Part shown: positions 2,711 to 62,241 of the stretch, one piece after another
How the letters are laid out: the number at the start of each line of letters is the position of its first letter
Position numbering within the stretch: position 1 is the first letter of the stretch
From: an uncultured Pseudomonadales bacterium
GTDB taxonomy: Bacteria; Patescibacteriota; Microgenomatia; UBA1400; PJMF01
Length of the DNA: 64,000 nt
Reading direction: 5' to 3'
NCBI GenBank assembly: GCA_964457085.1
Contig: CAYWDM010000003.1
Coordinates: forward strand, 186 to 64,185
Translations under genes and position numbers: made by a program
The notes under the pieces: generated by a model
Seen by the model: the letters and a program-made list of their open reading frames with translations, nothing else
Databases searched by the model: none
Told to the model about the DNA's origin: nothing

Positions 2711-3517
2711 TTAATATCCTGGAACAGCAATATAGATAATCTCTGTGCGGTAATTGCCAGCAGTTTGGCCACCAACGATGCCAGCTTTGTAGGTCACAGT
2801 TGCTTGATTCTGGAAGGCGACACTTGCTGAACTCATCACTGGTTGCATGGCTTCGCTGGCACTATTATTAGCAAACTGACGGAAATAAGTGGCATCAGTA
2901 AAATCAACAGGAACTTGGCTACCAGTGATCGAAAATCCAAAGCCGGGGGTGGTGGGGTTGGTCCAAGGCTTGGCAATAGTTTCATTGCAGTCACTAGCGT
3001 CACAGGTGGTATCAGGAATGTAATCCAGATTATTTGAATGTTGCAGTGGATGCGACTCATAGGCATAGACGATGTAGCCGCCAGCACCCTTAGTATCAAT
3101 AGTAAGTACATTACTGTCTGACTTGTGTTCCTCTGGGAGCAGTTCTCCAAGTTCAATGAAAAGCTTCGAGATTGCAAACCGGAAGTAATGGATTGTGTAA
3201 ATATATTGAAAACCTGCTCCTAAAAATTTGGTGGCACTTTGATACGGGCCTGAAGCTGTTTGTCCGAGCGTTTCTGTAAGGTTGTAGGTAGTGCTGTCTT
3301 GACGGCCACTTCCGGTATTAAAATTGCCGAATTGGATTACAAAAGAGTCTGATTCAAGTCGTTCTGCAGTAGCTTGCTTGGGTAAGTAAAGAAAGAGAGT
3401 TGCCGCCACGACACAGCTAGTTAGCCAAGTAAAAATGGAGTGTTTTTGAGAAAAGTGAACTTTTCTGTCTCTACTTTTCTGTTGAAACTGTGGTGTCATT
3501 ATTAGTTTCTGTTTCAA
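2711..3517 (-). CDS. hypothetical secreted protein
   Basis: 268 aa with N-terminal hydrophobic segment; same operon as neighbours. Confidence 0.45.
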   Translation of the reverse strand: MKQKLIMTPQFQQKSRDRKVHFSQKHSIFTWLTSCVVAATLFLYLPKQATAERLESDSFVIQFGNFNTGSGRQDSTTYNLTETLGQTASGPYQSATKFLGAGFQYIYTIHYFRFAISKLFIELGELLPEEHKSDSNVLTIDTKGAGGYIVYAYESHPLQHSNNLDYIPDTTCDASDCNETIAKPWTNPTTPGFGFSITGSQVPVDFTDATYFRQFANNSASEAMQPVMSSASVAFQNQATVTYKAGIVGGQTAGNYRTEIIYIAVPGY

Positions 3518-4385
3518 AATGTACTTGTTCCTCTTGATATGGAGGTTCGTCCTGATTCAACTCCATTTCTGAGGTTTGTGCAGCAACATCAGCTATTTGT
3601 GATGTCGGTGTGAGGTTAGATTCAAATATGTCGATAGTAGTGGTGATTTGCTCGGTTATTTCTGGAAGTTCAGCTTCGAGTTCAGCATCGAGTTCGGTTA
3701 CATTATTTTCTCTAGCTTTGGTTTGTGAGATAAGTTCATCTGTAATCAGTGCAATCTCGGCCATTTCTGCTTGCATTTTTTGTTGATTTTCTCGAGGGAA
3801 AAATGACATTCGTTGCAATTTTTCAAGCTTACTTTCAAGAAACCCACTCATGAAGTTTTCTAGTTTTTGATCAATAAGTTGCGCTTCAAGTAGCTGCAGC
3901 TGTTGTTTCTGTAGATTATGTTGTTGAGCAATTGTCTTGGAATATTGGTCTTTAGCAAATAAGAAAAACAACATTACGATCGGTAGGCTGAGTAAAAATG
4001 ATAGCTCACTGAGGCTTGGGTCTGCGGTAAGCGCGAAATGAAATAGTATTATTTCCATGGTGGCTACGATAGCTGTGATCGAGTCAGATTTGATAGCAAG
4101 CACAAATAAATGCACAAAGCTCAAAAAGAACAGCACCGATCGAACGTTGCCAGTTGCTCCAATTAAGAGCAGGAAAGCCAAAGTCACCACCGCCATTTCA
4201 ATAGATGCATGGGTGGGCAATAATTGCCAGACTTTAGCCTTATGAACTTTTTTGATTCCAAAATATGCCAGTACCACTATGGCAAATAGTTGCAATGAAT
4301 AGGCACTCAGCAATGGAGTTTTAAGCCAGACATAGGTAAGACTAATTGCGATCGAGATGATAAGAATATGATAGGCAGATTTCAT
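3471..4385 (-). CDS. hypothetical polytopic membrane protein with acidic coiled-coil C-terminal tail
   Basis: 304 aa with ~5 predicted TM helices in the first 180 aa, then a Q/E-rich coiled-coil region. Confidence 0.45.
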   Translation of the reverse strand: MKSAYHILIISIAISLTYVWLKTPLLSAYSLQLFAIVVLAYFGIKKVHKAKVWQLLPTHASIEMAVVTLAFLLLIGATGNVRSVLFFLSFVHLFVLAIKSDSITAIVATMEIILFHFALTADPSLSELSFLLSLPIVMLFFLFAKDQYSKTIAQQHNLQKQQLQLLEAQLIDQKLENFMSGFLESKLEKLQRMSFFPRENQQKMQAEMAEIALITDELISQTKARENNVTELDAELEAELPEITEQITTTIDIFESNLTPTSQIADVAAQTSEMELNQDEPPYQEEQVHFETETNNDTTVSTEK

Positions 4386-12786: not shown

Positions 12787-12824
12787 AAAAACCCCGCCTT
12801 GAGAAATCGAGAGCGGGGTTTTAA
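12787..12824. terminator. rho-independent terminator (bidirectional) after ndk
   Basis: aaaaaccccgc-loop-gcggggtttt hairpin flanked by A/T runs. Confidence 0.7.
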
Positions 12825-12833
12825 ATGTATTTT

Positions 12834-13202
12834 TTACCCAAGGACGTTGCCAGCTGCTTTCAGAATACCTACATTGCTTGGTGTAACAAATTTAATCTGG
12901 TCAGCAGTATATTCTCGAGTATATCCAACTCCACCAGGCCAAGTTAACACATTTGCACCTGGATCGGTATCATGCGAACCTGCTTGGGGAAATTCAGCGA
13001 TAATTATACCTTTATCAACTGAAACAACTCTAAAAATTTCCCATATAGTTTTGCCAGATTCACCAACCCAATGGCCACAGTCACCTGGTTGCCAATCATG
13101 GGCTTCTTCTTCTTTCCTGTTCACTTTTTCTTCTACCATAAACCCTTTCTTGTTATTTTGATTAGTATACATCAAGATAATATTGAAATGATGTGCTCCC
13201 AC
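12834..13202 (-). CDS. hypothetical protein
   Basis: 122-aa ORF with GTG start lying inside the duplicated tRNA-Arg 3' segment. An internal ATG (MVEEK, ~13139) is an alternative start. No recognisable domain. Confidence 0.3.
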   Translation of the reverse strand: MGAHHFNIILMYTNQNNKKGFMVEEKVNRKEEEAHDWQPGDCGHWVGESGKTIWEIFRVVSVDKGIIIAEFPQAGSHDTDPGANVLTWPGGVGYTREYTADQIKFVTPSNVGILKAAGNVLG

Positions 13203-13208
13203 CGGGAA

Positions 13209-13347
13209 GCTCCCTTTCAGGGATTAGCCACGGGCTTCGTAGGTTGTGTATCAGTGAAATACCCGCCTCCCTTGGCGGCAGGACCAAATGTCCATTTCCT
13301 ACGATGAGGTCAAATCATTAAAAACATCTTTAGGAAAAGATATTTTT
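13209..13347 (-). mobile_element. ~139-bp mini-element 3' of tRNA-Arg, flanked by a 22-bp direct repeat of the tRNA 3' end (13187-13208 and 13348-13369)
   Basis: Direct repeat aat[g/a]atgtgctcccaccgggaa, 21/22 identical. Insert starts with an A/T-run hairpin and holds a core related to GCCCGTGGC / cccttggcgg shared with other copies. Confidence 0.45.
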
Positions 13348-13354
13348 AATAATG

Positions 13355-13426
13355 TGCTCCCACCGGGAATCGGACCTGGATTTAAGGTTTAGGAAACCTC
13401 CGTTCTATCCGTTGAACTATGGGAGC
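13355..13426 (-). tRNA. tRNA-Arg (anticodon CCT)
   Basis: Hand-folded cloverleaf: acceptor GCTCCCA/TGGGAGC, D-arm GTTC..GAAC, anticodon loop TTCCTAA, T-arm CCAGG-TCCGATT-CCCGG; 72 nt. Confidence 0.8.
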
Positions 13427-13615
13427 ATGCGGATATCTGGATTATAGCGATTTTTTTTGAAAAAGGGGTAAAGTTGGGATGTGGCAGAAAGCTGGTCTTA
13501 GACTGCTGAAATTGTAGACAACATTAACGTTAAAATATTCAATTGGATTGAACTTGACTTGATCTAATAATTCAAATTCTTAACAATCTATTGTATTGGA
13601 GCAACAGCTTTGAGA

Positions 13616-14047
13616 TCAGGATTCCTCTGATCGTCTAACGAGTTCATCCATCAATGCATGCTCATTGTAGGATGCCCCTTTTTCCTCAATTTTTCCAAAA
13701 TATTTATATCCTGGAGTGGCTATCGTTGGGCGTCGTGAATAATCATGCGGGTAACTTCTCCAAGTATTTTCGTCAACCTCTTGACTTAGGCGAAAATGAC
13801 CATGGTAACTATTGCTGGAGCTTGTGAATTGTTTAATTAATTGTAGTAGTCCAACCCAATCCTGTGAGGCACCAAGTTGACTAAGTTGTTGTTTTATTCT
13901 GTCGTCAAAAACGGCTATGGGTTCTTTAGAGTTTAATTCGGTTGTGATGCCCATTGGTTGCAGGATATACTGCAACCTGTTCCAGATATATTCTGTTTTA
14001 AGAGTCTTTGCCCATTCTTTCATTTCCGCTTCATTTTGTTCAGACAT
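13616..14047 (-). CDS. hypothetical protein
   Basis: 143-aa ORF between two tRNA genes; no recognisable motif. Confidence 0.4.
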   Translation of the reverse strand: MSEQNEAEMKEWAKTLKTEYIWNRLQYILQPMGITTELNSKEPIAVFDDRIKQQLSQLGASQDWVGLLQLIKQFTSSSNSYHGHFRLSQEVDENTWRSYPHDYSRRPTIATPGYKYFGKIEEKGASYNEHALMDELVRRSEES

Positions 14048-14235
14048 ATACGAATTGATGCTTTTGTTGAGGCAATTCTTGCACGATCCGAGTGTTTCGT
14101 TTAGGTGTGTGGGAAATCTAGGAGTATTTGTTGAGTGAGTTTTACTTACTTAGCGGGCACGGGCGTCCGCAACTTGAATATATTTATAAAAGCACCTGCG
14201 GCACTTTTCTAAATATATGTCGGAGATGGCGGACT

Positions 14236-14349
14236 TACCTATTCATGCTCATGATTTTGACAAGCTGAATGATTTCGCTTGATTGGGCACAAGTCGTCCT
14301 TTTCTCATCACGTAGCTTCTAAAAAACCACTTTGTGATTTTTTAGAAGC
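14236..14349 (-). mobile_element. ~114-bp mini-element 3' of tRNA-Pro, flanked by a 22-bp perfect direct repeat tatatgtcggagatggcggact (14214-14235 and 14350-14371)
   Basis: Insert starts (tRNA-proximal end) with a 12-bp A/T-run hairpin gcttctaaaaaa/ttttttagaagc. It contains core tttcgcttgattgggcac, and ends with tcatgagcatga. It is homologous to the Trp-associated copy. Confidence 0.5.
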
Positions 14350-14355
14350 TATATG

Positions 14356-14429
14356 TCGGAGATGGCGGACTCGAACCGCCGACCTTACGATCCCGAACCG
14401 TACGCTCTAGCCATCTGAGCTAATCTCCG
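14356..14429 (-). tRNA. tRNA-Pro (anticodon CGG)
   Basis: Hand-folded: acceptor CGGAGAT/ATCTCCG, D-arm GCTC-AGATGGCTA-GAGC, anticodon loop TTCGGGA, T-arm GGCGG-TTCGAGT-CCGCC. Confidence 0.8.
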
Positions 14430-27108: not shown

Positions 27109-27385
27109 CTTTGCACTGAAAAAAATTTACAACAACCAAATATTGACATATTCATATGTTATAGGATAATACTACATATGTGTTGAAAGTAGCTGCCAAG
27201 TGGTAGCCAGTCAGTTTCCCTTCAATAATTGTGGGAATCGTGCCTGGCAGCTTGGGGTTGCGACTCCGGGGTTTCGTCTCCGGTTTCAACATATCTTCAT
27301 AACTGCATTCCGGAGGGCCCTTTGGAATGCAGTTTATTTTTTTGTATGCACATTTTTTATCGAACTACTCGATTTGACCTGAACC

Positions 27386-27417
27386 AAAAACCCCGCCTGG
27401 TTTCCCAGGACGGGGTT
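27386..27417 (-). terminator. rho-independent terminator after rplL
   Basis: Minus strand aaccccgtcctgggaaaccaggcggggttttt. Near-identical copy at 43046-43083. Confidence 0.75.
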
Positions 27418-33484: not shown

Positions 33485-35563
33485 ATGGTACTTGAGGTGG
33501 CTGTAATCATCCAATTGCCATTTGAGCTCAAAAAGTATTTGATACAGACAATGAGAAAAAATACTTTATTTGGCTTGATTGTTAGCTTTTTGTTAGTTAT
33601 CACTGCAATACTTGGCATGGCCAAGGAAGCACAAGCTGCTGATAAGTCATATTCAATAGATTCTGTTTTGATTGATTCTACGATTCTGCCCAGTGGTGCC
33701 ATGAAAGTGCAGGAGCGGCGCACCTACGACTTTACCGGCGATTATCGTTTTGCATATCAGACCATCAAGTTTCAACCTGATCAACAAACTAACCCTCAGC
33801 GTATTGAGCCATACATATTGAGTCAATTTCAGTTGTGCGAACGTGAGGTTTGTTATCAATTATTGCCAAGTAACCAAGTAAATTGGCAAACTCCAAGAGA
33901 GAACCCAGATCAAACTTTTGTGGTTGAGAAAAAGGCGGATGAATATTACATCCAATGGCATTTTCGTGCAGATTCAATCAAAAAAGAATTTACTCTATCG
34001 TATGTTGTAGACAATGCGGTAACCCAGCACGATGATACTGCGGAACTCTATTGGCAGTGGATTGGCAGCGGTTGGGCGGTTTCACAAAATTTGGTTAAGA
34101 TTACCACACATTTGCCAGTTGGTATTGCCAGTGATCAAATAAGTGCTTGGGCTCATGGTCCATTGACTGGAATAGTGTCGATTCCCAGCACTACTGAAGT
34201 TGAGTTCTCGGTACCTTCTGTTCCAACCGGCAAGTTTTTTGAAGGCAGGATTGTGTTGCCAAAATCCATAATTTATGGAGGGGCCAAAGGTAGTGGGAGC
34301 TTGGCAAGCATCGGAAATCAAGAAGCCACATTTATCGAGAAGACCAAGCAAAAAGTTGCAAAATACGATTGGATGGCACGCATGGCCATTTTTGGCTTTT
34401 TAGGCTTGCTTGGAGTGATGGTATTTGGGTTTGTTTTAATGTTACACAACTTTTGGTTGCATCATAAAGATCAGATGTTGCCATGGTTGCTGAGTAGTCA
34501 GGGACAATGGGAACCACCCAGTGATATAGATGCAGCACAGGTCGACCAATTACTAACAGCACAGAAAGCGATTACACCGAGAGCTTTTACAGCCACGATT
34601 TTGTCGCTAGTGCGGAAAAAAGTTTTAAAGTTTAGACGTAGTGATACCAAACAAGGGTGGTTATTTCCTGACTACGTTTATTATTTGGAGTTTATGGCTC
34701 ATGACGAAGTAATTGCAGCAAAACTTTCTGGAATTGAAAAGCATGTTAAGAACTTTCTGTTTAATATTCCCGAGACAATGATCTCATTTGGTGGCAAAGA
34801 AATCTCGGTGTTGCCAGTTAAAAGCATTACTGCTTGGGCACAAAGTCACAGAGAAACCAGTTATCAATTTTTTCAAGATTTAGCAGAAAAAACCCTTAAA
34901 GAAAACCTGAGTGAAGGCTTTTTTGATCAGGAGGCTCATAAGCGTTCAAGTCACTTTATTTTTTACGGTGTGGGTTTTATTGTTTTTGCAGTCGCAATTT
35001 TAATTGGATCCCTATCACTAGCTGATTCGTTGCAAACTGCGTCTGGATTTGCCGATGGGCTGCGTGTCATCGGACCAATTGCGATGTTCTTAGGTGTTGG
35101 CATGGGGTTAATTTCATTTTATCTGACTTCTCGAGGTGAAAAGCGTACTGAACAGGGTTTTGCAGAGGCCAAGAAGTGGGCAGCATTCAAAAAACACATG
35201 CAGGACTATCAAAAAACGAAACAATATCCGATCGACTCGATTATTTTGTGGGAGAAATATTTGGTATACGGCACAGTCTTGGGAGTTTCAGCAAAAGCAC
35301 TATCGCAGTTACCAGTGCAATTTAGTCCAGCAGATCAAGCGATACTCACTGGCTATTGGTTGGGAAGTACGGATAGTGTGGGAGGCGGTGGTATGAATAG
35401 TATTGGTGATTTATCTTCGAGTTTTCAATCTCTTTCGAATGCATTAACGAGCGTTTCCAGTGCTGCATCCAGTAGCTATGGAGCCTCTGGCTCAGGATCA
35501 TCTGGTGGATCATCCGGTGGTGGTGGCGGAGGAGGTGGCGGTGGTGGCGGTGGTGCGGGGTAA
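33485..35563 (+). CDS. DUF2207-like membrane protein with C-terminal poly-Gly tail
   Basis: Signal/TM, large extracytoplasmic domain, TM helices, then Ser/Gly tail ending GGGGGGGGGGGGGAG, as in DUF2207 proteins. Probable start MRKNTLF (~33551). Confidence 0.5.
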   Translation: MVLEVAVIIQLPFELKKYLIQTMRKNTLFGLIVSFLLVITAILGMAKEAQAADKSYSIDSVLIDSTILPSGAMKVQERRTYDFTGDYRFAYQTIKFQPDQQTNPQRIEPYILSQFQLCEREVCYQLLPSNQVNWQTPRENPDQTFVVEKKADEYYIQWHFRADSIKKEFTLSYVVDNAVTQHDDTAELYWQWIGSGWAVSQNLVKITTHLPVGIASDQISAWAHGPLTGIVSIPSTTEVEFSVPSVPTGKFFEGRIVLPKSIIYGGAKGSGSLASIGNQEATFIEKTKQKVAKYDWMARMAIFGFLGLLGVMVFGFVLMLHNFWLHHKDQMLPWLLSSQGQWEPPSDIDAAQVDQLLTAQKAITPRAFTATILSLVRKKVLKFRRSDTKQGWLFPDYVYYLEFMAHDEVIAAKLSGIEKHVKNFLFNIPETMISFGGKEISVLPVKSITAWAQSHRETSYQFFQDLAEKTLKENLSEGFFDQEAHKRSSHFIFYGVGFIVFAVAILIGSLSLADSLQTASGFADGLRVIGPIAMFLGVGMGLISFYLTSRGEKRTEQGFAEAKKWAAFKKHMQDYQKTKQYPIDSIILWEKYLVYGTVLGVSAKALSQLPVQFSPADQAILTGYWLGSTDSVGGGGMNSIGDLSSSFQSLSNALTSVSSAASSSYGASGSGSSGGSSGGGGGGGGGGGGGAG

Positions 35564-35596: not shown

Positions 35597-35701
35597 TGGC
35601 GGTACACCCCAAGAGTGTTTGCAGGGTGAATTTCATTCACTCAGCGGGCACGGGCTTTGTAACTCCTGCTTGCTCAATAACTGAGACCACCCTTGGCGGT
35701 A
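35597..35701 (+). repeat. solo copy of the GGGCACGGGC-core mini-element, not at a tRNA, bracketed by 8-bp direct repeat tggcggta
   Basis: ttcactcagcgggcacgggctttgta...cccttggcgg matches the Arg-associated element (cacgggctt[ct]gta...cccttggcgg) and the solo copy at 14133-14170. Confidence 0.4.
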
Positions 35702-35714
35702 TAATCAAGATCTA

Positions 35715-36995
35715 ATGTTTTTAACTTCATTAACTACTGTATTCAAAAATAGCTGGTTGCTCGGCAAAAATTTTAATAATCTGACGACCAAACCTTCGCT
35801 GAATCGTAATATTTGGCTCTTCTATCTATCCAGTTTTCTTTCCGGACTGATTTTTATTATTCCAGTGTGGGTGTGGTTCGAGCGGCGGATGTTGACTGTT
35901 GGCCAGATGGCTGGACTCGAGGCAGTTGGTACCGCTCTAACACTAGTATTGGAGTTACCAACAGGAGCGTTTGCTGATCTATTTGGTCGAAAGGCAACAG
36001 CTGCCATTGGGTTATTGCTGCAGGGAATTGGTAATGTTGTTTGTGGGTTATCGATTGAGCCAGTGCAGTTTACCGTTGGTTTCATGATCTGTAGTGTGGG
36101 CTCAGCTTTGCTGTCTGGAGCCAATGACGCGTTGTTATTTGACTCGCTCAAAGAAATGGGAAGAGAAGATGAGTTTGCTAAAATGAGCAGCAAAAACGCC
36201 ATGAGTTTCCAAGCTGGAATCGTGATTGCGACTCTGATTGGTGGATACCTTGCAGCTTATTCGCTGAGTTTGCCATATATGCTTTATGGCGTGGCTTTAT
36301 TATTGGCAGCAGTAGCGTTTTCATTCAAACAAGAGCCAAATATCGATAGTGAAGTATTCACCCTCAAAAACTATCTGCTGCAAACGAAAGCAGGAGTGAT
36401 GGAGTTGTTTCGTAGTGAGAAAGTATTTGAGTTATCCTTGTTTTACATTCTAGTCGGTGGCATCACTTGGTCATCTCAGTCATTTTTCAATCAAAATTTT
36501 GCGGTAGATCTTGGACTGACGCCAGTTGAGATTGGCTGGATTTTTAGTGTTGTTCGAATTGTTAACTCAATAGTAATCTGGAAATTAGTGCATTCAAGTT
36601 GGCTGAAGCCGCACATTGCATTTATTTTATTTGCTGTGTTGTTGGCGGTGGCATATCTACCTGGATATTGGGTGGGCAAATGGGTTGGGGCAGCAGTTAT
36701 TGCTCTTGCTACTTTTGGAAGCACAGCTCGGTTTGTGATTTTGGGTCAATATTGCAATCATGAATTTCGATCGAAGAATCGGGCTACGGCAATATCTGCT
36801 CTAAACATGGGTGTGAGCATATTTTATGTGGCAGCAATGGTGCTGGGTGGATGGTTGATGGAGCAGTTTTCAACTAAATTAGTTATCTCACTGCTGGGAG
36901 TTTTTACAGTAATGACTGTCTGGCCACTCACTTTCGTGTTAGTGAAAAAATATCACACGGCAAAAGCATGCGGGCAACAAACCTCAGATACTTGA
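35715..36995 (+). CDS. MFS transporter
   Basis: 12 predicted TM helices; MFS loop 2-3 motif (GAFADLFGRKAT). Confidence 0.75.
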   Translation: MFLTSLTTVFKNSWLLGKNFNNLTTKPSLNRNIWLFYLSSFLSGLIFIIPVWVWFERRMLTVGQMAGLEAVGTALTLVLELPTGAFADLFGRKATAAIGLLLQGIGNVVCGLSIEPVQFTVGFMICSVGSALLSGANDALLFDSLKEMGREDEFAKMSSKNAMSFQAGIVIATLIGGYLAAYSLSLPYMLYGVALLLAAVAFSFKQEPNIDSEVFTLKNYLLQTKAGVMELFRSEKVFELSLFYILVGGITWSSQSFFNQNFAVDLGLTPVEIGWIFSVVRIVNSIVIWKLVHSSWLKPHIAFILFAVLLAVAYLPGYWVGKWVGAAVIALATFGSTARFVILGQYCNHEFRSKNRATAISALNMGVSIFYVAAMVLGGWLMEQFSTKLVISLLGVFTVMTVWPLTFVLVKKYHTAKACGQQTSDT

Positions 36996-43038: not shown

Positions 43039-43045
43039 GGAGAAC

Positions 43046-43083
43046 CAAAAACCCCGCCTGGTTTCCCAGAGCGGGGTTTTTAT
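43046..43083 (-). terminator. rho-independent terminator after rplA
   Basis: aaaaaccccgcctggtttcccagagcggggttttt, near-identical to the rplL terminator. Confidence 0.75.
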
Positions 43084-45188: not shown

Positions 45189-45413
45189 TTAGCGAGAAAT
45201 TAAACTACTGATTAGTTTTTGAAAGATAAAATCAAGTCCACCAATATAAAGAGCTACAACTGCACTCACACCAATCACTAAAAGGGTGAGGTTGGTAGTT
45301 TGTTGCTTGGTTGGCCAACTCACTTTCTTGAGTTCAGCTACCACATCTTTCATATACTCTGTTAGTTGTCGCATGTGAGAGTGGATTGTATCAAATTCCT
45401 GGTGGTTGTACAC
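45189..45413 (-). CDS. secE: preprotein translocase subunit SecE
   Basis: 74 aa; single C-terminal TM with SecE-like VSWPTKQQTTNLTLLVIGVSAVVALYIG; upstream of nusG. Confidence 0.7.
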   Translation of the reverse strand: MYNHQEFDTIHSHMRQLTEYMKDVVAELKKVSWPTKQQTTNLTLLVIGVSAVVALYIGGLDFIFQKLISSLISR

Positions 45414-47499
45414 CGCGCTGCTTGAGACGCTCCATCATTGAGTTTGCAGATTCATTTTTTGGTGTCTGCATGTTGAGGTTTTGTTTCAAGTGCTCAAGAC
45501 GTCTTTGCTCTGATTCTAGATCACTCGTTTTTTGGGCAGTATTTGGATTTATGTAGCGTGCGTCTTTGCGGCGACTGTCACCAAAGAGCATTGGGAGCAC
45601 TAATAATGCTACAACTATTAAGAGTAGGCCACCAAGAATGAATGGCAATTTAGTGAACAAGCTGGTGATCCAGGCTGGTTTTTGTGTTGTCTTATTATCA
45701 GTTCCGCCAGTTGAATCAACTTTTTTCGTAGTACTGGTAGTTGCAGCTGGACTAACTGAAGGCTTGCTGTCGATAACACCAGAAGTGGTTGATCCAATTG
45801 CTAATTCTGGATCCTCACCAATTTCAGTAGCACTGCAAATGAAGCTGGCTAAGTTGGCTGGTAATCTACAGCGATTTGAATAGCAGCGTAGTCCCAATGC
45901 ACAATCGCTGTTGCCGGCACAGGTTTCATTACACTGCATTTCAGCAGCCTCTGTAGTGAGTTCTGAGCCACCTTTTTCGTTCGAATAAGACTCAATTACA
46001 CGGTACACAGATTTCTTCGCTGGTGCCTTGCAACTAGTATCTGGTTGGTTTTTGGGGTTGCGGCAACGATTCCAGTAACAACTGAGTCCAGCAGTGCACT
46101 CTCTTGAGTCTGCACAGTACTCATTACAACTGCGGTTTAGACCTTTGTCTGGAGCTAAAACACATGAGGTGCTATCAACATTGCCAGCACGGCGACATTG
46201 GTTGTTGGAACAAGTGAGGTTTGGAGCACATTCAGTATTAGAACTGCATGACTCATTACATTGTTTGTAGCTCACTCCACCCACACCTGCACATTTGGGG
46301 ATAAAGAAGCGCACCACACTACTATGTTTACCATTCCATAGCCTGAAATAGTAATTTACTTCAGGATAGAAAGAGTAGAGAGTTTTTTTGCCATCACTAT
46401 AGGTTCGGAAGTTGGTACTATCTGTTACTAAGTACGAGTCACCCAGAGTACTTGTACCACCAGAAACTTCTTTATTTGCGAAATCACGGAAGTCACTGTA
46501 GATACTGACATCGATTGCAGTAACATTTGGGTAACGGTTTTTGTTCCAGAGAACGTATGTTGAGTTTCCGATTGTGCGGTCATACCAACATGCTTCGTAG
46601 GTATACAAGCTGAAGTCTGGGTCATAACCAACTGTTTCACAGGCTTGAGTCAACTCTTGCATAGCTTCAGTTTGGTACCAAGTACAGTTGGCTGGAGTGG
46701 TCGCCACGGTGCGAGTTTTCCAACCATTGGTACATGCACCCCAATCTGAGTAGGTGTAAGCACATTGTTGGAGACAACTCTGCTCAAGTTGAGTGGCATC
46801 TGGGGCAGCGCAAGTTGACGGGTTTGCGGTATAAGTGCGGATTTGTTTACCGTTTTGGCAGCTTGACCAAGCCCCAAACGAATAACTGCAGACATCTTGG
46901 ATCACATTCAATACTACGTTTTCTACGGTGTTTAGTACGTCTTGATTGGCGGTTTGATACCGAGTAACAATTGTTTTACTTTGGTCGAAATCTAGGCGGT
47001 ATGCATTAGTGGAAGCAGGAATCAAGCTGAGGGCCATCAAAGACTCGTTCCCAGAGGTGCTGAATGGGTCACCGACGACATTTGGTAACAGCATGAATTG
47101 ATATTGGTATCCATTTGTAGTGGCCTTGCCATTCCAATCGGCTAAACGTAATTTCGGATTAGTGACTCGGTAGGAAAAACCCGATCCAAATTGTTGGTTC
47201 TCTCCAGTAACTGTCAAATCAAGGGTTAATTGGACGGCACTTACTTGAGTATTATTGGTGTTGATGTCAATCTGAATCGGAGATTCTGTGCCAAGTTTGA
47301 GCGTAGTAGTGGGACTAGTTATGTGCACCACACCATTGGTTACGCTGGCTTGACCTCGCAAATCGGTGTCTTCGCGTAATTGTTTTTGTAACAGCAAGGA
47401 ACTAACAGCTAAAAAGCCAAAAAGTGTTAATATCACCACCCATAAAACAGTGGAAATGGGCTTGGTAAGTAGTGGTTGAGTGCCGAGTGTGCGCTTCAT
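45391..47499 (-). CDS. large secreted/anchored Cys-rich repeat protein with N-terminal cohesin-like module; paralog of 48450-50483
   Basis: N-terminal TM, cohesin-like segment (LGTESPIQIDINTNNTQVSAVQLTLDL). Central region collinear with the paralog (YTYEACWYDRTIGNSTYVLWNKNRYPNV...KCAGVGGVSYKQCNESC...). Four ~25-aa 5/6-Cys modules ending C..NRCR. Start overlaps secE by 23 nt. Confidence 0.55.
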   Translation of the reverse strand: MKRTLGTQPLLTKPISTVLWVVILTLFGFLAVSSLLLQKQLREDTDLRGQASVTNGVVHITSPTTTLKLGTESPIQIDINTNNTQVSAVQLTLDLTVTGENQQFGSGFSYRVTNPKLRLADWNGKATTNGYQYQFMLLPNVVGDPFSTSGNESLMALSLIPASTNAYRLDFDQSKTIVTRYQTANQDVLNTVENVVLNVIQDVCSYSFGAWSSCQNGKQIRTYTANPSTCAAPDATQLEQSCLQQCAYTYSDWGACTNGWKTRTVATTPANCTWYQTEAMQELTQACETVGYDPDFSLYTYEACWYDRTIGNSTYVLWNKNRYPNVTAIDVSIYSDFRDFANKEVSGGTSTLGDSYLVTDSTNFRTYSDGKKTLYSFYPEVNYYFRLWNGKHSSVVRFFIPKCAGVGGVSYKQCNESCSSNTECAPNLTCSNNQCRRAGNVDSTSCVLAPDKGLNRSCNEYCADSRECTAGLSCYWNRCRNPKNQPDTSCKAPAKKSVYRVIESYSNEKGGSELTTEAAEMQCNETCAGNSDCALGLRCYSNRCRLPANLASFICSATEIGEDPELAIGSTTSGVIDSKPSVSPAATTSTTKKVDSTGGTDNKTTQKPAWITSLFTKLPFILGGLLLIVVALLVLPMLFGDSRRKDARYINPNTAQKTSDLESEQRRLEHLKQNLNMQTPKNESANSMMERLKQRGVQPPGI

Positions 47500-47505
47500 A
47501 TACAG

Positions 47506-48366
47506 TTATCTAGTCCATTCTTTAACCATGACTGAGTAATCAAAAATGTCGATCTTTTTATCGTGATTGATGTCATACATCAAATCGGCTGGTGAGCTAT
47601 CAAAGAAGTGCATGCTGAGCAGGTCAAAATCACTTTGGTTTACTAAACTATCTCCGTTTAAGTCTGAATCTGCACAAAAGACATAGTTTGGTTGTAGTTT
47701 AATTTCACAGGCTGGATCCTCAAACATACATGCAGATTTCCGGATACAACCAATTTTCTGTTTCTCGCAACGTTGGCCATTTACTGATACACCGCAGCTG
47801 TATCCGATTGGTGGTGCAATTAAGATGCAAGAACGTCCAGCATCGACTGGTAAACATTCTGTGCCACACCAATCACATTTCAGAGGTCCTTGAGTTGGAG
47901 TGGGGGTGGCTGTTGGCTGTGGTGCTTTACAATCTTGAGAGCAATTGCAGTAGTTTTCACCAAGACCACAAACGCCATCGCCACATTTGGTACAAACAAT
48001 TGCACCTTCGGCACGCATACATTGACCAGTAGTATCTGGCTTGTCTCCAGTTATTTGAGTTAACCCTGAGCAACATTGTGGTTTAGTTCCATCAATAATG
48101 CTTGCTTTACCACCTTCGTATATACAGGGCGGTGGATATGAGTCTACAGCTGCAGTTAGGCTATTTTCTGCGACTACATTTGTACTGGCAGCTCGTCGTA
48201 AATCTTGAGAGCGTGAGACCATTGCCAAGCTAACAACGACTCCAACAGAAAGTATTGTAAGAAATAGTAGCGAAACAACAATTGTTATTGGCAGTTTTTT
48301 AAGATCAGCAGCAGTTTTTTTTGAATCAACTGAGATCGTTTGACCGGTAATTTCAGGCATCACCAT
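47506..48366 (-). CDS. membrane-anchored Cys-rich protein with C-terminal dockerin-like repeats
   Basis: N-terminal TM; Cys-rich body (KCGDGVCGLGENYCNCSQDC...). C-terminal duplicated Ca-binding-loop segments DLNGDSLVNQSDFDLL / DINHDKKIDIFDYSVM. Confidence 0.6.
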   Translation of the reverse strand: MVMPEITGQTISVDSKKTAADLKKLPITIVVSLLFLTILSVGVVVSLAMVSRSQDLRRAASTNVVAENSLTAAVDSYPPPCIYEGGKASIIDGTKPQCCSGLTQITGDKPDTTGQCMRAEGAIVCTKCGDGVCGLGENYCNCSQDCKAPQPTATPTPTQGPLKCDWCGTECLPVDAGRSCILIAPPIGYSCGVSVNGQRCEKQKIGCIRKSACMFEDPACEIKLQPNYVFCADSDLNGDSLVNQSDFDLLSMHFFDSSPADLMYDINHDKKIDIFDYSVMVKEWTR

Positions 48367-48449
48367 CTAGCATAGAATCAAGTCAGGGTACAAGTCAATA
48401 GAACACAACAGCCCAAATGATAGATGGGCTGTTGTGTTCTTAAATGCGA

Positions 48450-50483
48450 TTATTTTTGCTCTGGAGTAGAACTCGAAATTGGTCTGCCATAACTCTGACC
48501 TCCAGTTGCAGGAGTTGTGGGAGTTGCGGGACCATTGTTTAGACCAGCAGCTGGTCGAGTTGCAGTTGGCTGTACTGGTTGTGCTGGTTGCATTGGTGTC
48601 GGATTTGCAATCAATGACTGACCAGACTTTGCCTGCAGGGCAGATAGAATCCGTGGTACCCCAAGCACTGCTGCCACAGCAATGATAATAATCCCAAGGA
48701 TTAATGGCACAGCTGCGAATGGTGAACTGGCTTTTTTGGCTGGAGCGGGGGTAGCCTCAGTTTTGTCAGGGAAATCATTAACCAATTTCTTCACAGTGGT
48801 TGGCTTAGCACTTGGTTTGGCACTAACTTTAGGTGAAGGTGACACGTTTAACACCACATTTGCTTTTGGTGTTGGTGAAACGGTACTGGTCACCACTATG
48901 GTTGGACTGACTTTTGCAATTGGCTTAACTGTTGGTCTGCGAGTTGGTCTGACTGTGTCCCCATTATCGTCAACATAGCCACCAGTACCAGTGTCATCAG
49001 TACTAGATGTAGGTGGTTGGCAACGAGTATTGGCTGGGTTTGTCAGCAGACGACATTGATCGTTGTAACAGCGGAGATTGGCTGGGCAGTCGCTATTGGT
49101 GCTACAACTCTTATTACAGTCAACTACAACACCTGGCTTCACTATGGTTCTGCAAGAGACATCCTCAAGACTTTGAGAGTTGCGGCAGCGGTTGTACCAG
49201 CAAGTAAGTCCATTTGAACACTCGCTACTGTCTGCACAATATTTGTTGCAACTGGTTGTGGTGGTAGTGACACTTGAGCAGCTCTGGTCGTCGGTTTTTT
49301 GAGGTGCACGGCAGCGGTTGTACCAACAGGTGAGACCGTCGGAGCATTCGCTGTTGTCACTACAGTATTCATTACAACTGCGTTTAATACCTTTGTCTGG
49401 AGGCAACACACAACTAGTGTTGTCTTGATTGTTGATACGGCGACACTTACTGTTGTAACAATATAAGTTGGTAGCACATTCATCGTTGTTGCTACATGCC
49501 TCATTACATTGTTTGTAGCTAACTCCGCCAACTCCAGAGCATTTAGTTACTTTGTAGGTGGTGATTGCACTGTGTCGATTATCGTAGAACAGTCGCAAAT
49601 AATAAGTAATTTCTGGATCAAAGGTAAATGCACCTTTACTGCTGTTGTACCAGCGGAAATTGGTGCCATCAGTCATGGCGAAGCCATTACTGAGTGGTTT
49701 TGGATTAGTCACATCCTTATTTGCATACTCACTAAAGTCGGCTTTAGTGCTAATGTCTACAGATTTGATGTTGGGATAACGGGTGTTATTCCAGACGATG
49801 TATGTAGATGAACCATTTGAGCTATAGTTCAAACAAGCTTCGTAACTATAGACAAAGAATTCTGCGTTAGTGGGGACAAGAGTGGGTGTTGGAATGATTG
49901 CCACATCAGCAATTTTTACATCCAAATCTGTATGTAAACTAACTGCATCAGTGGATTCTCCCTGAGCACCAACAGTAGTATCTTCTTGAGAAAAGGTGAC
50001 TCTAGTTGAGTCCGATTTTTGTAGTGCTTTGAATGTTGCTGTCGCTAAGACTCCTTGGCCGGTTAAATAGGGTGGGTTGGCATTTGTTGGGACAATTACA
50101 GAGTATGAGGCAATGCCAGCAGCTCCGTTGACAGAGTTAATTAGTTCTTGTGCTTGAGAGGCAAACGCACCCTTTTCAATCTTTATTAACTCTAGATAAC
50201 TTTTGTCATATCGCAAGCCAACGTCCACAGCCTTAACTAAATTGGCATTGGTGTTAATATCAACTTTTACGGTAAAAATTTGTCCTGGGCCAACTGTTGC
50301 GTTTGATGTGGTTAGTCCTAATGTGGTGGCTGGCGCAGCTTTGCTACCCAAATCTTGATTCCCACCAAGTAACGCTATGCCTGCAGCCAATCCAACCATG
50401 ACAATAACCAGCAAAAACCCGACGATTGGCACTAACAGTGGTAGATGGGTGTGGTGAAAGCTGTGTGATTTAAGTTTGGGCAT
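48450..50483 (-). CDS. large secreted/anchored protein with cohesin domain, Cys-rich repeat modules and Pro/Thr-rich C-terminal region
   Basis: Cohesin signature GPGQIFTVKVDINTNANLVKAVDVGLRYDKSYLELIKIEKGAF...GVLATATFKAL (cf. CipA cohesin PGDTV.IPV....I..CDF.L.YDPNVLEI.EIEPG). Four C-x3-C-x5-C...NRCR modules. TPTP-rich tail with C-terminal TM. Confidence 0.65.
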   Translation of the reverse strand: MPKLKSHSFHHTHLPLLVPIVGFLLVIVMVGLAAGIALLGGNQDLGSKAAPATTLGLTTSNATVGPGQIFTVKVDINTNANLVKAVDVGLRYDKSYLELIKIEKGAFASQAQELINSVNGAAGIASYSVIVPTNANPPYLTGQGVLATATFKALQKSDSTRVTFSQEDTTVGAQGESTDAVSLHTDLDVKIADVAIIPTPTLVPTNAEFFVYSYEACLNYSSNGSSTYIVWNNTRYPNIKSVDISTKADFSEYANKDVTNPKPLSNGFAMTDGTNFRWYNSSKGAFTFDPEITYYLRLFYDNRHSAITTYKVTKCSGVGGVSYKQCNEACSNNDECATNLYCYNSKCRRINNQDNTSCVLPPDKGIKRSCNEYCSDNSECSDGLTCWYNRCRAPQKTDDQSCSSVTTTTTSCNKYCADSSECSNGLTCWYNRCRNSQSLEDVSCRTIVKPGVVVDCNKSCSTNSDCPANLRCYNDQCRLLTNPANTRCQPPTSSTDDTGTGGYVDDNGDTVRPTRRPTVKPIAKVSPTIVVTSTVSPTPKANVVLNVSPSPKVSAKPSAKPTTVKKLVNDFPDKTEATPAPAKKASSPFAAVPLILGIIIIAVAAVLGVPRILSALQAKSGQSLIANPTPMQPAQPVQPTATRPAAGLNNGPATPTTPATGGQSYGRPISSSTPEQK

Positions 50484-50491
50484 ATATACTT

Positions 50492-51412
50492 TTATGTTCC
50501 TATAAGTTGAGTGATGATTGCGTAGTCAATTGCATTGATTTTGCCATCATGATTGAGATCCGCTTCTGGCAAAATTGAAACTGGACGTAAATATGCAAAC
50601 ACTAACAAGGCGACATCTTGGCTGTCGACAGCACCATCGTGATTAAGGTCGCCTGTTTTATACCCAATTGGGGTAGTGGGGGTAGGACTGGCAACTCCAG
50701 AGATGGTTGGGGTGACAGTTGGGGCATTGGGACATGCTGTCATATTTGTTGACCATGTGCCGTTTACAGCTGGACAGCAATACAGACGATTGCCGCAAGA
50801 CTCGGCACGACCTACAGCATTACAGGTACTGTCAGTCGAAGTACCGTCAGATTCTGGTGGGTGACAGTTTCGCAATACGCCATCTGTGCCTGGACATTCT
50901 TCTACACAGGGGATTGGTATTGTGGGTGTTGGTGTGCCAGCATTGGGAGTGGGTGTTGGTGTCGAAGTCGGTGCGGGTGTCGGAGTTGGTGTCTTGGTGG
51001 GAGTGGGACTTGCAACATTAGGAGTAGGAGTTGGCGTCTTGGATGGTGCAGGTGTTGGAGTGGCACAAGCAGTCATTGCGGTGGTCCATGCACCACCAGC
51101 GGAGGGACAACAGTAACTCTTGCCACCGCATGGTTCAACTCTTCCTTTAACGTTACAGGTACTATCTGCTGAGCTGCCATCTGGTTCTGGTGGAGTACAG
51201 TTTCGCAAAACATTATCTTTGCCAGGGCATTCTTCTTTACAGCCGCCAGCTGCGAGATTGTTAGTGTTAAATCCAGCTGCATCCCTGCGTGGATCTTGGT
51301 TTTGTTGCACGAGTACGACTGCGGCGGGAATAGCCACAGCCATGAATACTAATCCAAGCACAATACGGAGTTGGCTTGTATTTGGCTGTTGCTTAGGGTG
51401 TTTAGAACTCAT
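50492..51412 (-). CDS. secreted Cys-rich protein with internal tandem duplication, PT linkers and C-terminal dockerin
   Basis: Two ~48-aa copies (ECPGKDNVLRNCTPPEPDGSSADSTCNVKGRVEPCG / ECPGTDGVLRNCHPPESDGTSTDSTCNAVGRAESCG), TPTPTP linkers. C-terminal dockerin repeats GDLNHDGAVDSQDVALL / ADLNHDGKINAIDYAII. Confidence 0.6.
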   Translation of the reverse strand: MSSKHPKQQPNTSQLRIVLGLVFMAVAIPAAVVLVQQNQDPRRDAAGFNTNNLAAGGCKEECPGKDNVLRNCTPPEPDGSSADSTCNVKGRVEPCGGKSYCCPSAGGAWTTAMTACATPTPAPSKTPTPTPNVASPTPTKTPTPTPAPTSTPTPTPNAGTPTPTIPIPCVEECPGTDGVLRNCHPPESDGTSTDSTCNAVGRAESCGNRLYCCPAVNGTWSTNMTACPNAPTVTPTISGVASPTPTTPIGYKTGDLNHDGAVDSQDVALLVFAYLRPVSILPEADLNHDGKINAIDYAIITQLIGT

Positions 51413-51542
51413 AAAACAAGCGAAAATATTCGCTAATTCATTGAATCATTATCGGCGGTGTTTATCAACTAACAAGAATGTCGTCCTGATGATTCAGTAT
51501 CAAATAATTGGGTCACTTACGTAGTGGACAATTGATAGTCAA

Positions 51543-53618
51543 TTAGGTTCCAATCAAATCAAGCAGTTTCGCGTAGTCGATCGCGTTGATTCGATTATCG
51601 GAGTTAAGATCGGCTTTTGGTTTGGCAGATGCTGCCTGGCCATATACTGTGATCATCATTTGTACATCTTGTTGGTTAACTATATTGTCTTGATTCAAGT
51701 CACCCAATTTATTAGTGGTTACAGTTGGCACAGTAGTATTGGTTGGCAATGGGGCGGTAGTACTGGTGATGATGGGAGTAACGCTTGGTGTAATGGCTGG
51801 ATTTCTTGTTGGAGTTGGTGAAGGTATTCTGGTTGGTGTTGGGGTAACAATACGAGTTGGGGTTGGTGTGGCTGCAGGGACAGTTGGCGTTGGTGTTCTG
51901 GTTGGCGTAGGGGTGCGTGTGGCTGTCGGTGTGGGAGTGGCTGTTGCCTGTGGTGTGATGGCAGTGCAGTTTGGCCCAACGGTGTTTGAACCATCATTGC
52001 AGTCTGGAATTGCATGTGCTGCACAGGAAGCTGGACAGCCTGTTGCTGGTTTGGTGTTGTCAGTACCCCAGAAACAGTAGCTGTCGTTGTCGCGGTCACT
52101 ACAGGTGATCGCAGCCTTGCTGGCTGGTGGAATAATGTTTTTGCTATAGAGAACTGCTGGGTCACTGGCAGCGACATAAATACCCGCCATGGTTTCTATA
52201 CCTGGGTCACTGGTGATGGTTTTGGCCACAATTTGGTTGTATGCAGTGAGTACATTAGATGTGGCTCCTGGAATAGTGCCTTGCATCACATAGCGGAAAT
52301 AGCCGCCCTCACCGAAAGTGGTGTTCCAGCTGTTTTTTATGATCCAATATTCAAGTCCAGTTGCATTGTCTTTGCCCCAGCCAACAATAGAGATTACATG
52401 CAAACCCTGGTATGGAGCAGTGACTGTTTTGGCGTAAATACCGCTTTGGTAATAATACAAATCTTCAAAGACAGCAATACTTGCTGTGACTGGGCCATGT
52501 TCAATGATTGCACGCTTAATATTTTGGGCAGTGGCATACGTGTCTAAAATATAGTTTGTTTGATCTTTCCAGACGACTGCAACCGCTTCTTTATCTGATT
52601 TATAGAGTGAATCAGCGGTCGACTGTCCACATCTGGGATTTGGACATGCACAGCTGGCAGTTGAGCGATCACATGCCTTGTAGCTGTTGCAGGACTCAGG
52701 GATGATCCCTGAGTTTTTTGCATAGATAAAATAGTCACTCGAAAATCCACCAGTGGCACAAATATTGTTGTAAGCTGTGGCGGTGTTACAAACGATCGCA
52801 TCTTGTTCAGAAAAATCTAAATTGAGTCCAGGTTGGTTAAGGTGGGAGCCGACGTTAGCCTCTAAAGTTGCAGTGCTCCCAAAAACGGTACAAGAACCAC
52901 AATTTGCTTGATCTTTTACAGAGGATACAAAGTTGCCGCCGTGAATTTGTCGCCAGTCATAGTTTGCAGGAAGAGTAACTCCCTGATCAAGCTCCGCACT
53001 AAGGCCATTGCTGCTACCCAAAATACTTGTATTTGCTGAGTAGGTTGTGGTGACATTTGCTGCTGGTTTGCCGGATGACTTCAACTCATTGAGGTTTGCA
53101 ATATTTTGCAGTTGAAATGGCTTGGCGTAGTTTTCCTCTTTGAGACGCTTTGCGGCTACGGGACTATATGAGGAGACCTTCCAGGTTTTTTCAACACTAT
53201 TTTTCCCTGGGGGTGGCACAGCTAGAGCAGCATTCTCAAATTGAGTAATTTTATTGGAGTGAGCAATGATTTGGGTCTGATTTAGGTTAAGACCTGCTTG
53301 ATTAGATTGTTGTTGAATTTGCAGTGTTTTTGCATCAAGACTGTAGTTACCTCCAGAAGCTTGTTGTCGTAAATCTTGGCCAGTTGCGTTCAGTGCAAGT
53401 GCAGTAATGACGCCTACTACTAGTAAGCCTAATAAACCAATCGCTCCAAAAAATTTAAGTTTTTTTTGAGGGTTATGGTGTGGTTGGAATGAGTCTGTGG
53501 CAGGGGGTTGGGTGGTAACAACATGGACATCTGCAGAAACAGGTAAAACTACAGGACTCGGCAAGATATCTGCTAAGTTGTTGTGATTCTGTGGTGATTG
53601 TTGAGAACTGCCAAGCAT
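51543..53618 (-). CDS. membrane-anchored papain-family (C1A) cysteine protease with Pro/Thr linker and C-terminal dockerin
   Basis: Catalytic signatures: Gln/Cys (VKDQANCGSCTVFGS), His (HVISIVGWGKD), Asn-Ser-Trp (WIIKNSWNTTFGEGGYFRY). Linker TPTPTATRTPTPT. Dockerin GDLNQDNIVNQQDVQMM / ADLNSDNRINAIDYAKL. Confidence 0.8.
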   Translation of the reverse strand: MLGSSQQSPQNHNNLADILPSPVVLPVSADVHVVTTQPPATDSFQPHHNPQKKLKFFGAIGLLGLLVVGVITALALNATGQDLRQQASGGNYSLDAKTLQIQQQSNQAGLNLNQTQIIAHSNKITQFENAALAVPPPGKNSVEKTWKVSSYSPVAAKRLKEENYAKPFQLQNIANLNELKSSGKPAANVTTTYSANTSILGSSNGLSAELDQGVTLPANYDWRQIHGGNFVSSVKDQANCGSCTVFGSTATLEANVGSHLNQPGLNLDFSEQDAIVCNTATAYNNICATGGFSSDYFIYAKNSGIIPESCNSYKACDRSTASCACPNPRCGQSTADSLYKSDKEAVAVVWKDQTNYILDTYATAQNIKRAIIEHGPVTASIAVFEDLYYYQSGIYAKTVTAPYQGLHVISIVGWGKDNATGLEYWIIKNSWNTTFGEGGYFRYVMQGTIPGATSNVLTAYNQIVAKTITSDPGIETMAGIYVAASDPAVLYSKNIIPPASKAAITCSDRDNDSYCFWGTDNTKPATGCPASCAAHAIPDCNDGSNTVGPNCTAITPQATATPTPTATRTPTPTRTPTPTVPAATPTPTRIVTPTPTRIPSPTPTRNPAITPSVTPIITSTTAPLPTNTTVPTVTTNKLGDLNQDNIVNQQDVQMMITVYGQAASAKPKADLNSDNRINAIDYAKLLDLIGT

Positions 53619-61988: not shown

Positions 61989-62059
61989 AGGGCTATTATG
62001 TAATGGTAGCATTGAGGTCTCCAAAACCTTCCGTCAAGGTTCGAATCCTTGTAGCCCTG
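61989..62059 (+). tRNA. tRNA-Trp (anticodon CCA)
   Basis: Acceptor AGGGCTA/TAGCCCT, D-arm ATGT-AATGGTA-GCAT, anticodon stem GAGGT/ACCTT loop CTCCAAA, T-arm CAAGG-TTCGAAT-CCTTG. Confidence 0.8.
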
Positions 62060-62061
62060 CA

Positions 62062-62186
62062 CTTATAAAAAAACGAGCAACAGCTCGGATTTTTTATAAG
62101 TATGAGAGACGAGGATGCCCGTGCCCAATCAAGCGAAAACATCCAGGAAAACATCCAGTTAGTAAACTCATGAGCATGATGGGGTA
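62062..62186 (+). mobile_element. ~125-bp mini-element 3' of tRNA-Trp, flanked by 18-bp direct repeat aatccttgtagccctgca (62044-62061 and 62187-62204)
   Basis: Starts with A/T-run hairpin aaaaaaacgagc-aaca-gctcggattttttt (doubles as tRNA terminator). Core gcccgtgcccaatcaagcgaaa, end motif ctcatgagcatga; homologous to the Pro-associated copy. Confidence 0.5.
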
Positions 62187-62241
62187 AATCCTTGTAGCCC
62201 TGCAGAAATAACAAACCAGCTGTGATAAGAATTTAATTCTT

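Follow-up and report, generated by a model that had tools for sequence, protein, structure and literature searches.

A short insertion upstream of an MFS transporter gene as a candidate solo member of a family of cargo-less DNA elements at tRNA genes in Patescibacteria

Introduction

Little is known about the mobile DNA of bacteria of the candidate phyla radiation, whose genomes are very small. The closest described counterparts of the elements reported here are the integration marks left by tyrosine integrases at the T-loop sublocation of tRNA genes, the decayed remnants known as CIMEs, and the short intergenic repeats of bacterial genomes. Integration at the T-loop has been described for mycobacteriophage Ms6, whose attP cores can be retargeted to other tRNA T-loops through base changes in the core (PMC1762012). 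CIMEs are decayed remnants of ICEs or IMEs that keep attL and attR, and they can accrete in tandem at a single tRNA gene (PMC5704250).

Here we describe five related copies (A to E), all of them intergenic, in a 64,000-nt stretch of DNA, hereafter the window. As in the T-loop class (class II, Ms6 attP/attB), the repeats span the region from the T-loop to the tRNA 3′ end, and the tRNA is rebuilt from element sequence, with the element's own sequence following the tRNA; the retargeting of Ms6 also resembles the relationship between D and E, which share arms and have Trp and Pro cores, respectively. Unlike class II elements, ours have no integrase gene and no cargo, measure 80–145 bp, which is about the size of a compact attP, and include one copy at a non-tRNA site with only an 8-bp repeat. 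CIMEs are alike in their att-type flanks at the tRNA 3′ end, their lack of integration and transfer genes and their tandem stacking, and the pattern that defines them, attL and attR kept and genes lost, is seen in C, D and E. The CIMEs described to date, however, are, as far as is known, kilobase-sized remnants of identifiable ICEs in Firmicutes, whereas the present inserts are about 100 bp long, have no recognisable parent, reside in a Patescibacteria host, and contain conserved internal blocks and modules common to three tRNA targets. MITEs, Correia, RUP, REP and BIME sequences are likewise short, non-coding, intergenic and repeated, and can adjoin and alter promoters, but our copies lack terminal inverted repeats, occur in low copy number and are mosaic, and their flanks derive from the tRNA T-arm and 3′ end and not from a target duplication of fixed length. 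What sets the elements apart is their size of only 80–145 bp, the arms common to three tRNA cores, and the short conserved blocks at fixed spacing.

Results

Copy A and its position upstream of the transporter gene

Judged by homologues of its MFS transporter and PEGA-domain protein, the window belongs to the Patescibacteria, within the Microgenomates/Pacebacteria group. The features of the locus are as follows.

33485–35563: DUF2207 gene (Pfam)
35597–35604, + strand: left copy of the 8-bp direct repeat tggcggta, flank of A, read directly
35605–35693, − strand (family orientation): body of the putative solo element A, 89 bp; the motif reads GCCCGTGCCC on the − strand
35626–35640, + strand: hairpin GTGAAT-TTC-ATTCAC of A, adjoining the motif
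35646–35655, + strand: core motif GGGCACGGGC of A, at the junction of the B-shared and C-shared modules
35694–35701, + strand: right copy of tggcggta, overlapping block CCCTTGGCGG (35690–35699, common to C) and reaching two bases into the −10 box
35700–35705, + strand: TATAAT −10 box of the MFS gene, directly downstream of A and kept as GTATAATC in relatives (alignment)
35715–36995: MFS gene, ATG at 35715

As an aside on this gene, it is apparently leaderless or nearly so, with TATAAT-N9-ATG in the window (35700–35717) and TATAAT-N6-ATG in relatives (L001, 9990–10003).

Copy A (35597–35701) is in the 151-bp spacer between the two genes, lies more than 19 kb from the nearest tRNA gene and has no terminator. 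The 8-bp direct repeat that the original prediction had placed around it is present at both ends, its copies 97 nt apart from start to start. An exact 8-mer repeat within 60 nt on each side brackets 6% of all window positions, so this bracket alone is weak evidence for an insertion. The orthologous DUF2207–MFS spacers in three relatives (L001, L003 and L004) measure only 51–69 bp (69, 68 and 51 bp, respectively) and are without A; subtracting 97 bp from the 151-bp spacer leaves 54 bp. The short orthologous spacers without A and the fitting arithmetic make A look inserted, although base-exact insertion boundaries are out of reach since the MFS proteins of the relatives without A are only 60–66% identical to that of the window. 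The only conserved intergenic feature of the orthologous spacers is GTATAATC, the −10 box, located 6–9 nt before the ATG.

These observations bear directly on the suggestion in the original prediction that A might act as a cis-regulatory RNA, that is, a riboswitch or leader of the MFS transporter, for which its position upstream of a transporter gene is the only argument. The downstream end of A falls on the first bases of the conserved TATAAT, which stands 9 nt ahead of the start codon, and since A therefore lies upstream of the promoter core it is not part of the 5′ UTR and not a riboswitch. It is also missing from the three orthologous loci, folds no better than shuffled sequences (z = −1.1 on the + strand and −1.7 on the − strand), gives no Rfam match even at E ≤ 10, and has sister copies beside tRNAs and unrelated small genes. 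We therefore consider a cis-regulatory RNA extremely improbable.

Related inserts at tRNA genes

Three of the six tRNA genes in the window (Arg, Pro and Trp) carry an insert of 115–145 bp, each bounded by a perfect 18–22-nt duplication of the tRNA 3′ end, while the remaining three show no such 3′-end repeat. The features at these genes are listed below, with the parts of each element in their order along the tRNA strand.

13191–13208, − strand: distal 18-nt repeat of the tRNA-Arg 3′ end, TTCCCGGTGGGAGCACAT
13209–13351, − strand: element C at tRNA-Arg, with terminator hairpin, linker, CTGCCGCCAAGGGAG (13267–13281), 25-nt variable spacer, TACGAAGCCCGTGGC and hairpin TCCCTGAAAGGGA
13226–13235, − strand: TACGAAGCCCGTGGC of C, motif-like
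13352–13369, − strand: proximal 18-nt tRNA-Arg repeat, inside the intact tRNA-Arg(CCT) (13354–13426)
14105–14213, − strand: element B (left boundary approximate), second unit stacked at tRNA-Pro, with two-way terminator hairpin, GCGGACGCCCGTGCCC and the module shared with A
14214–14235, − strand: distal 22-nt repeat of the tRNA-Pro 3′ end
14236–14349, − strand: element E at tRNA-Pro, with terminator hairpin, degenerate motif (14285–14294), GTGCCCAATCAAGCGAA, and TCATGAGCATGA near the distal end
14350–14371, − strand: proximal 22-nt tRNA-Pro repeat, covering the final 3 nt of the T-loop, the 3′ strands of T-stem and acceptor, and a small number of further bases
14355–14429, − strand: intact tRNA-Pro(CGG)
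62044–62061, + strand: proximal 18-nt tRNA-Trp repeat, AATCCTTGTAGCCCTGCA, starting at the fifth T-loop base of tRNA-Trp (61989–62060)
62062–62186, + strand: element D at tRNA-Trp, with two-way terminator (62074–62087), motif (62117–62126), GTGCCCAATCAAGCGAA, two tandem 12-nt repeats and TCATGAGCATGA (62168–62179)
62187–62204, + strand: distal tRNA-Trp repeat

The duplications begin at the fifth or sixth base of the 7-nt T-loop, span the T-stem 3′ strand and the acceptor 3′ strand, and end 2–8 nt past the tRNA gene. All three insert-bearing tRNAs are of full length according to ARAGORN and Rfam; in C, D and E the tRNA is kept intact at the proximal junction and gains a new terminator. These three inserts have perfect flanking repeats and contain no ORF. 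Behind B, we found no distal tRNA-Pro repeat. In B, C, D and E, the end next to the tRNA carries a terminator hairpin, so that on the tRNA strand a strong two-way terminator comes first, followed by the motif in the form GCCCGTG(C/G)C. Polarity relative to the flanking repeats is identical in all five copies, including A. Where A has GTGAAT-TTC-ATTCAC, B and C also form a hairpin, of different sequence, and the blocks GTGCCCAATCAAGCGAA and TCATGAGCATGA are invariant between D and E. A tRNA-primed retroelement was rejected as an origin, given that the repeats extend into genomic sequence beyond the tRNA and have no CCA.

With its roughly 90-bp non-coding body between 8-bp direct repeats, A could on its own pass for a conventional MITE moved by a DDE transposase, with tggcggta as the target-site duplication, and several IS families make duplications of 8 bp. 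The ends of A without the repeat (CACCCCAAGAGTG and AGGGTGGTCTCAG), however, are not inverted repeats of each other, and the only inverted repeat spans the direct repeat itself. Moreover, the sister copies are bounded by tRNA-derived repeats of 18–22 nt and not by 8-bp repeats, the duplication length is not constant, and the copies are mosaic and diverged where near-identity would be expected of a MITE. We judge this origin of A to be very improbable.

Two further observations concern individual tRNA elements. The hairpin at the distal end of C (13209–13223, − strand, TCCCTGAAAGGGAGC) resembles the tRNA-Arg repeat, with TCCCGGTGGGAGC matching at 11 of 14 positions with a 2-nt gap, and could be a degenerate third core copy from an earlier integration. 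In addition, the assembly of SRR12261223 (L114, whose position 1 corresponds to window position 62074) breaks exactly inside D, at the terminator, which suggests repeat-induced or coverage-related fragmentation.

The core motif and the mosaic structure of the copies

The motif GGGCACGGGC occurs exactly three times in the window (14155+, 35646+ and 62117−), compared with a mean of 0.02 expected from dinucleotide shuffles, and none of 100 shuffles reached three copies, in agreement with the earlier statement that its frequency is beyond chance. Two near-copies that had also been noted are present as well, AGCCACGGGC in the tRNA-Arg element (13226) and GGGCACAAGT in the first of the tRNA-Pro elements (14285). 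When one mismatch is allowed, the count becomes unremarkable (17 of 100 shuffles reach three). A role as a DNA-uptake sequence was discarded, the motif being confined to these elements.

What had been described as a partial copy of the repeat at 14133–14170 does match A, and over a greater length than claimed, since 14122–14164 is 79% identical to 35613–35655 over 43 nt; it is, however, not a partial copy but the core of B, the second element stacked at tRNA-Pro. A and C have in common the blocks CACGGGCTT[CT]GTA and CCCTTGGCGG, with unrelated sequence between them. The similar spacing reported for the tRNA-Arg element was borne out, the distance from CCGCCAAG to TAC(G/A)AAGC being 38 nt in A, 37 nt in C and 37 nt in C′, the counterpart of C in the related genome L117.

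Overall, the five copies found in about 75 kb are only 60–80% alike in pairwise comparison, and their flanking repeats measure 8, 18, 18 and 22 nt. A is C-like on the proximal side and B-like on the distal side of the motif, while B joins a proximal side like that of D and E to a distal side like that of A. To score these modules, we excluded the motif and compared the flanks with 500 shuffles. The observed score was reached in 3 of 500 shuffles for the distal side of A and B, in none for the distal side of D and E, in 9 for the proximal side of B and D, and in 1 for the proximal side of D and E. The inserts are mosaics, with modules apparently swapped at the motif.

An alternative reading of the motif is that it marks a conserved short peptide gene of 25–31 codons, as A, B and the L013 sequence described below each have a short open frame (..AGTG..) running through it. 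D and E, however, use another frame (GGG-CAC-GGG versus GGC-ACG-GGC), only one of five codon differences between A and B is synonymous, the peptides diverge completely past the motif, and the neighbouring small ORFs have no match in Pfam or PHROGs, all of which makes a peptide gene barely credible.

Presence, absence and conservation in related genomes

Each of three samples of this organism has unchanged copies of A, C, D and E; the contigs were identical, and none of them held an empty-site variant. No further copy was found in the approximately 9 kb beyond the right end of the window. In two other species, L099 (74% identity in the PEGA-domain protein) and L118 (65%), both tRNA-Pro and tRNA-Arg are clean. 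A further genome, L117, which is roughly equidistant from the window genome and L099 (74% PEGA identity), carries inserts at tRNA-Pro and tRNA-Arg at the same sites as in the window. Its Pro insert is of the E type, with the terminator gone and one mismatch in the distal repeat, and its Arg insert is of the C type, with a perfect 18-nt repeat. The identities between C and its L117 counterpart, segment by segment, were as follows.

tRNA body: 88%
Terminator: 71%
Linker: 61%
CTGCCGCCAAGGGAG: 93%
25-nt spacer: 32%
TACGAAGCCCGTGGC: 93%
TAATCCCTGAAAGGGAGC: 94%

The short blocks are better conserved than the tRNA body, whereas the product of the next gene downstream shares only 32% identity between the two genomes. 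The acceptor stem differs between the genomes (GGGAGC versus GGGGGC), and the two Arg repeats of each have the variant of their own tRNA, which points to recombination that made or homogenised the repeats after the lineages split.

The block-wise conservation between species would fit a non-coding module selected by the host, either a target of a host DNA-binding protein or a small RNA converging on the tRNA and ending at the two-way terminator, with the tRNA duplications being incidental. Such a module would also be in keeping with the terminator hairpin that follows the motif by 0–25 nt, in the GGGCACGGGC direction, in B, D, E and the possible L013 copy. It leaves unexplained both the precise duplications from T-loop to 3′ end and the absence of inserts from two of four related lineages. 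Promoter scans detected no sigma-70-like promoter inside the elements, A has no terminator, and Rfam, at the gathering threshold and at permissive E-values, returned only tRNAs. The RNA structure that the original prediction had proposed to look for did not emerge, as the alignment folds of D/E and of A/B show no covariation and folding does not exceed that of shuffles; between the hairpins of A and B, a single pair is compensatory (A-T to G-C) and another is broken, which is weak. We regard a host-selected module as improbable.

As a separate observation, the stretch from tRNA-Pro to tRNA-Arg is a hotspot of variable content (window 13427–14354, L117 2340–2977, L099 11496–15291 and L118 11549–13029). 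In the window it holds a 143-aa gene with no detectable homologue, and in L117 a 147-aa gene that is unrelated and lies on the opposite strand; L099 has seven genes there and L118 about 1.5 kb. The 11-mer ACTCCTGCTTG of A (35664–35674) recurs in L117 at 2442–2452, 5 nt past the distal tRNA-Pro repeat and in the opposite orientation relative to the tRNA; the chance of such a match in loci of this size is about 0.2, and it may be meaningless.

Searches for further members, a recombinase and a parent element

No recombinase or Phage_integrase family matched any of 19 window ORFs in Pfam, and no integrase families are listed in the gene tables of the relatives' loci. Scans of viral contigs yielded nothing or chance matches in coding sequence; the patterns used were an 18-mer (TTTCGCTTGATTGGGCAC), a 17-mer (ACTYAGCGGGCACGGGC), two patterns with gaps and two of the conserved blocks. 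The 17-mer matched 85 times among one genome per species (the source genome not included), all by chance in GC-rich genomes with the possible exception of L013, and the 18-mer matched 12 times in JGI metagenomes, all by chance. Searches of A and D against phage and plasmid collections using blastn gave no match. Across these viral, phage, plasmid, genome and metagenome searches, no parent element was found.

The L013 sequence, from a Paceibacterota MAG, is an intergenic ACTCAGCGGGCACGGGC followed directly by a terminator, and is tentatively a further relative of the family. The members at hand are therefore five in the window, two in L117 and one doubtful copy in L013. In its own right, the region of L013 at 3313–3420 contains a promoter-like TTGACA-N17-TAAAAT, about 60 nt of sequence and then a perfect 16-bp palindromic terminator, and is possibly a small RNA or leader; in Rfam it gave only weak, sub-threshold leader matches.

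Discussion

Direct repeats from the T-loop to the tRNA 3′ end flank C, D, E and both L117 inserts, while A is flanked by only 8 bp, which resemble the end of the T-loop and the T-stem 3′ strand. The duplication from T-loop to 3′ end, the intact rebuilt tRNA, the terminator, the tandem stacking, and the presence or absence of the inserts among related species are classical signs of integration at the T-loop by a tyrosine integrase (PMC1762012). For A, the same junction geometry as in the tRNA repeats and the likeness to AGTCCGCCA suggest integration at a pseudo-site. The claim that the repeat family reaches a non-tRNA site holds, with A intergenic, distant from any tRNA and missing from the orthologous spacers. 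A may be a solo insertion from a lineage-specific family of DNA elements without cargo, of which it is the smallest, a description to which we give about an even chance. That A is a cargo-less integrase-type mini-element, or the remnant of one, at a T-arm-like pseudo-site is a proposition we hold with middling confidence, and that its family acts at the DNA level, and not as RNA, is part of the same reading.

Under such a mechanism, a recombinase encoded elsewhere would recognise a T-arm-like inverted repeat and cross over in its loop. Circularisation of A would create the junction CTTGGGG-TGTA-CCGCCAAG. This junction is an inverted repeat whose 3′ arm would be covered by the duplicated TACCGCCA, beginning in the loop, as in the tRNA repeats. 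The predicted circle junction is GACCACCCT-TGGCGGTA-CACCCCAAG, and the predicted empty site AACTCATC-TGGCGGTA-TAATCAAG. A would then have integrated at a pseudo-site with only about 8 bp of identity, resembling the AGTCCGCCA start of the tRNA-Pro repeat, and its insertion would have parted the −10 box of the MFS gene from its former upstream sequence while leaving the gene intact. The conserved blocks (CCGCCAAG, the spacer, TAC(G/A)AAGCCCGTG(C/G)C and GTGCCCAATCAAGCGAA) are putative protein-binding sites of the arm or accessory type, and the motif may be the site of recombination between family members or of interior deletion in larger parent elements. Counting against an integrase model, circles of 97–145 bp are near the lower size limit for recombinase-mediated excision.

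A more specific form of this model is that the elements are active as "mini-attP" sequences, that is, cargo-less circles of 80–145 bp consisting only of a T-arm-mimicking core, a terminator and recombinase-binding blocks, which would be moved in trans by an integrase encoded elsewhere, exchange modules at GCCCGTG(C/G)C and be retargeted by new cores (Arg, Pro, Trp and the promoter-side pseudo-site). We think this unlikely, though if it were true the elements would be to integrases what MITEs are to transposases, within the reduced genomes of Patescibacteria.

The contending explanation is that the copies are inert scars, the tRNA inserts being islands or prophages that have lost their interior and A a product of illegitimate recombination or segmental copying, so that nothing is mobile now. 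Decay into att-flanked remnants is well known (PMC5704250), and several results would be expected from it, namely the lack of recombinase families among the 19 window ORFs, the decayed appearance of the L117 Pro insert with its distal-repeat mismatch and lost terminator, the missing distal repeat of B, and the statistical weakness of the 8-bp repeat of A. Conversely, three independent decays would have to arrive at the same 115–145 bp, the same layout and a central motif; blocks conserved at 93–94% beside a spacer at 32% across species are unlike neutral scars; and the Arg repeats are perfect in both genomes and follow each genome's tRNA variant. We consider inert scars a rather doubtful, if substantial, alternative. 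Constraint in active parents combined with repeated deletion at an arm site could mimic the block pattern, in which case the scar explanation overlaps with the integrase-type one. Both readings, mobile mini-elements and remnants shaped in active parents, stand.

Either way, half of the tRNA genes in a 64-kb stretch carry att-flanked inserts of about 100 bp, and the blocks conserved in a second species, together with the promoter-side copy, suggest that site-specific recombination shapes these genomes without a visible integrase. Should the elements still move, no smaller natural substrates of an integrase would be known, and strain history could be followed with them as a simple marker. As scars, they would mark out tRNA-Pro/tRNA-Arg as an island hotspot, and would still show annotators that such repeats are neither riboswitches nor small RNA genes.

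Other features of the window

Two observations concern other parts of the window. A near-identical terminator hairpin, AAAAACCCCGCC...GGCGGGGTTTTT, is present at no fewer than three gene ends, that is, at least at 27381–27417, 43042–43078 and 12787–12821; two of its copies are 95% identical over 37 nt, and it also occurs in L117 at about 3580–3612. Judging from these copies, it may be a separate small repeat family. Finally, the region at 45391–53618 contains several large ORFs of 677–702 aa with long, diverged internal and mutual repeats (one of 236 nt at 71%), and relatives have a Dockerin-domain gene as a neighbour; these ORFs probably encode paralogous surface proteins.
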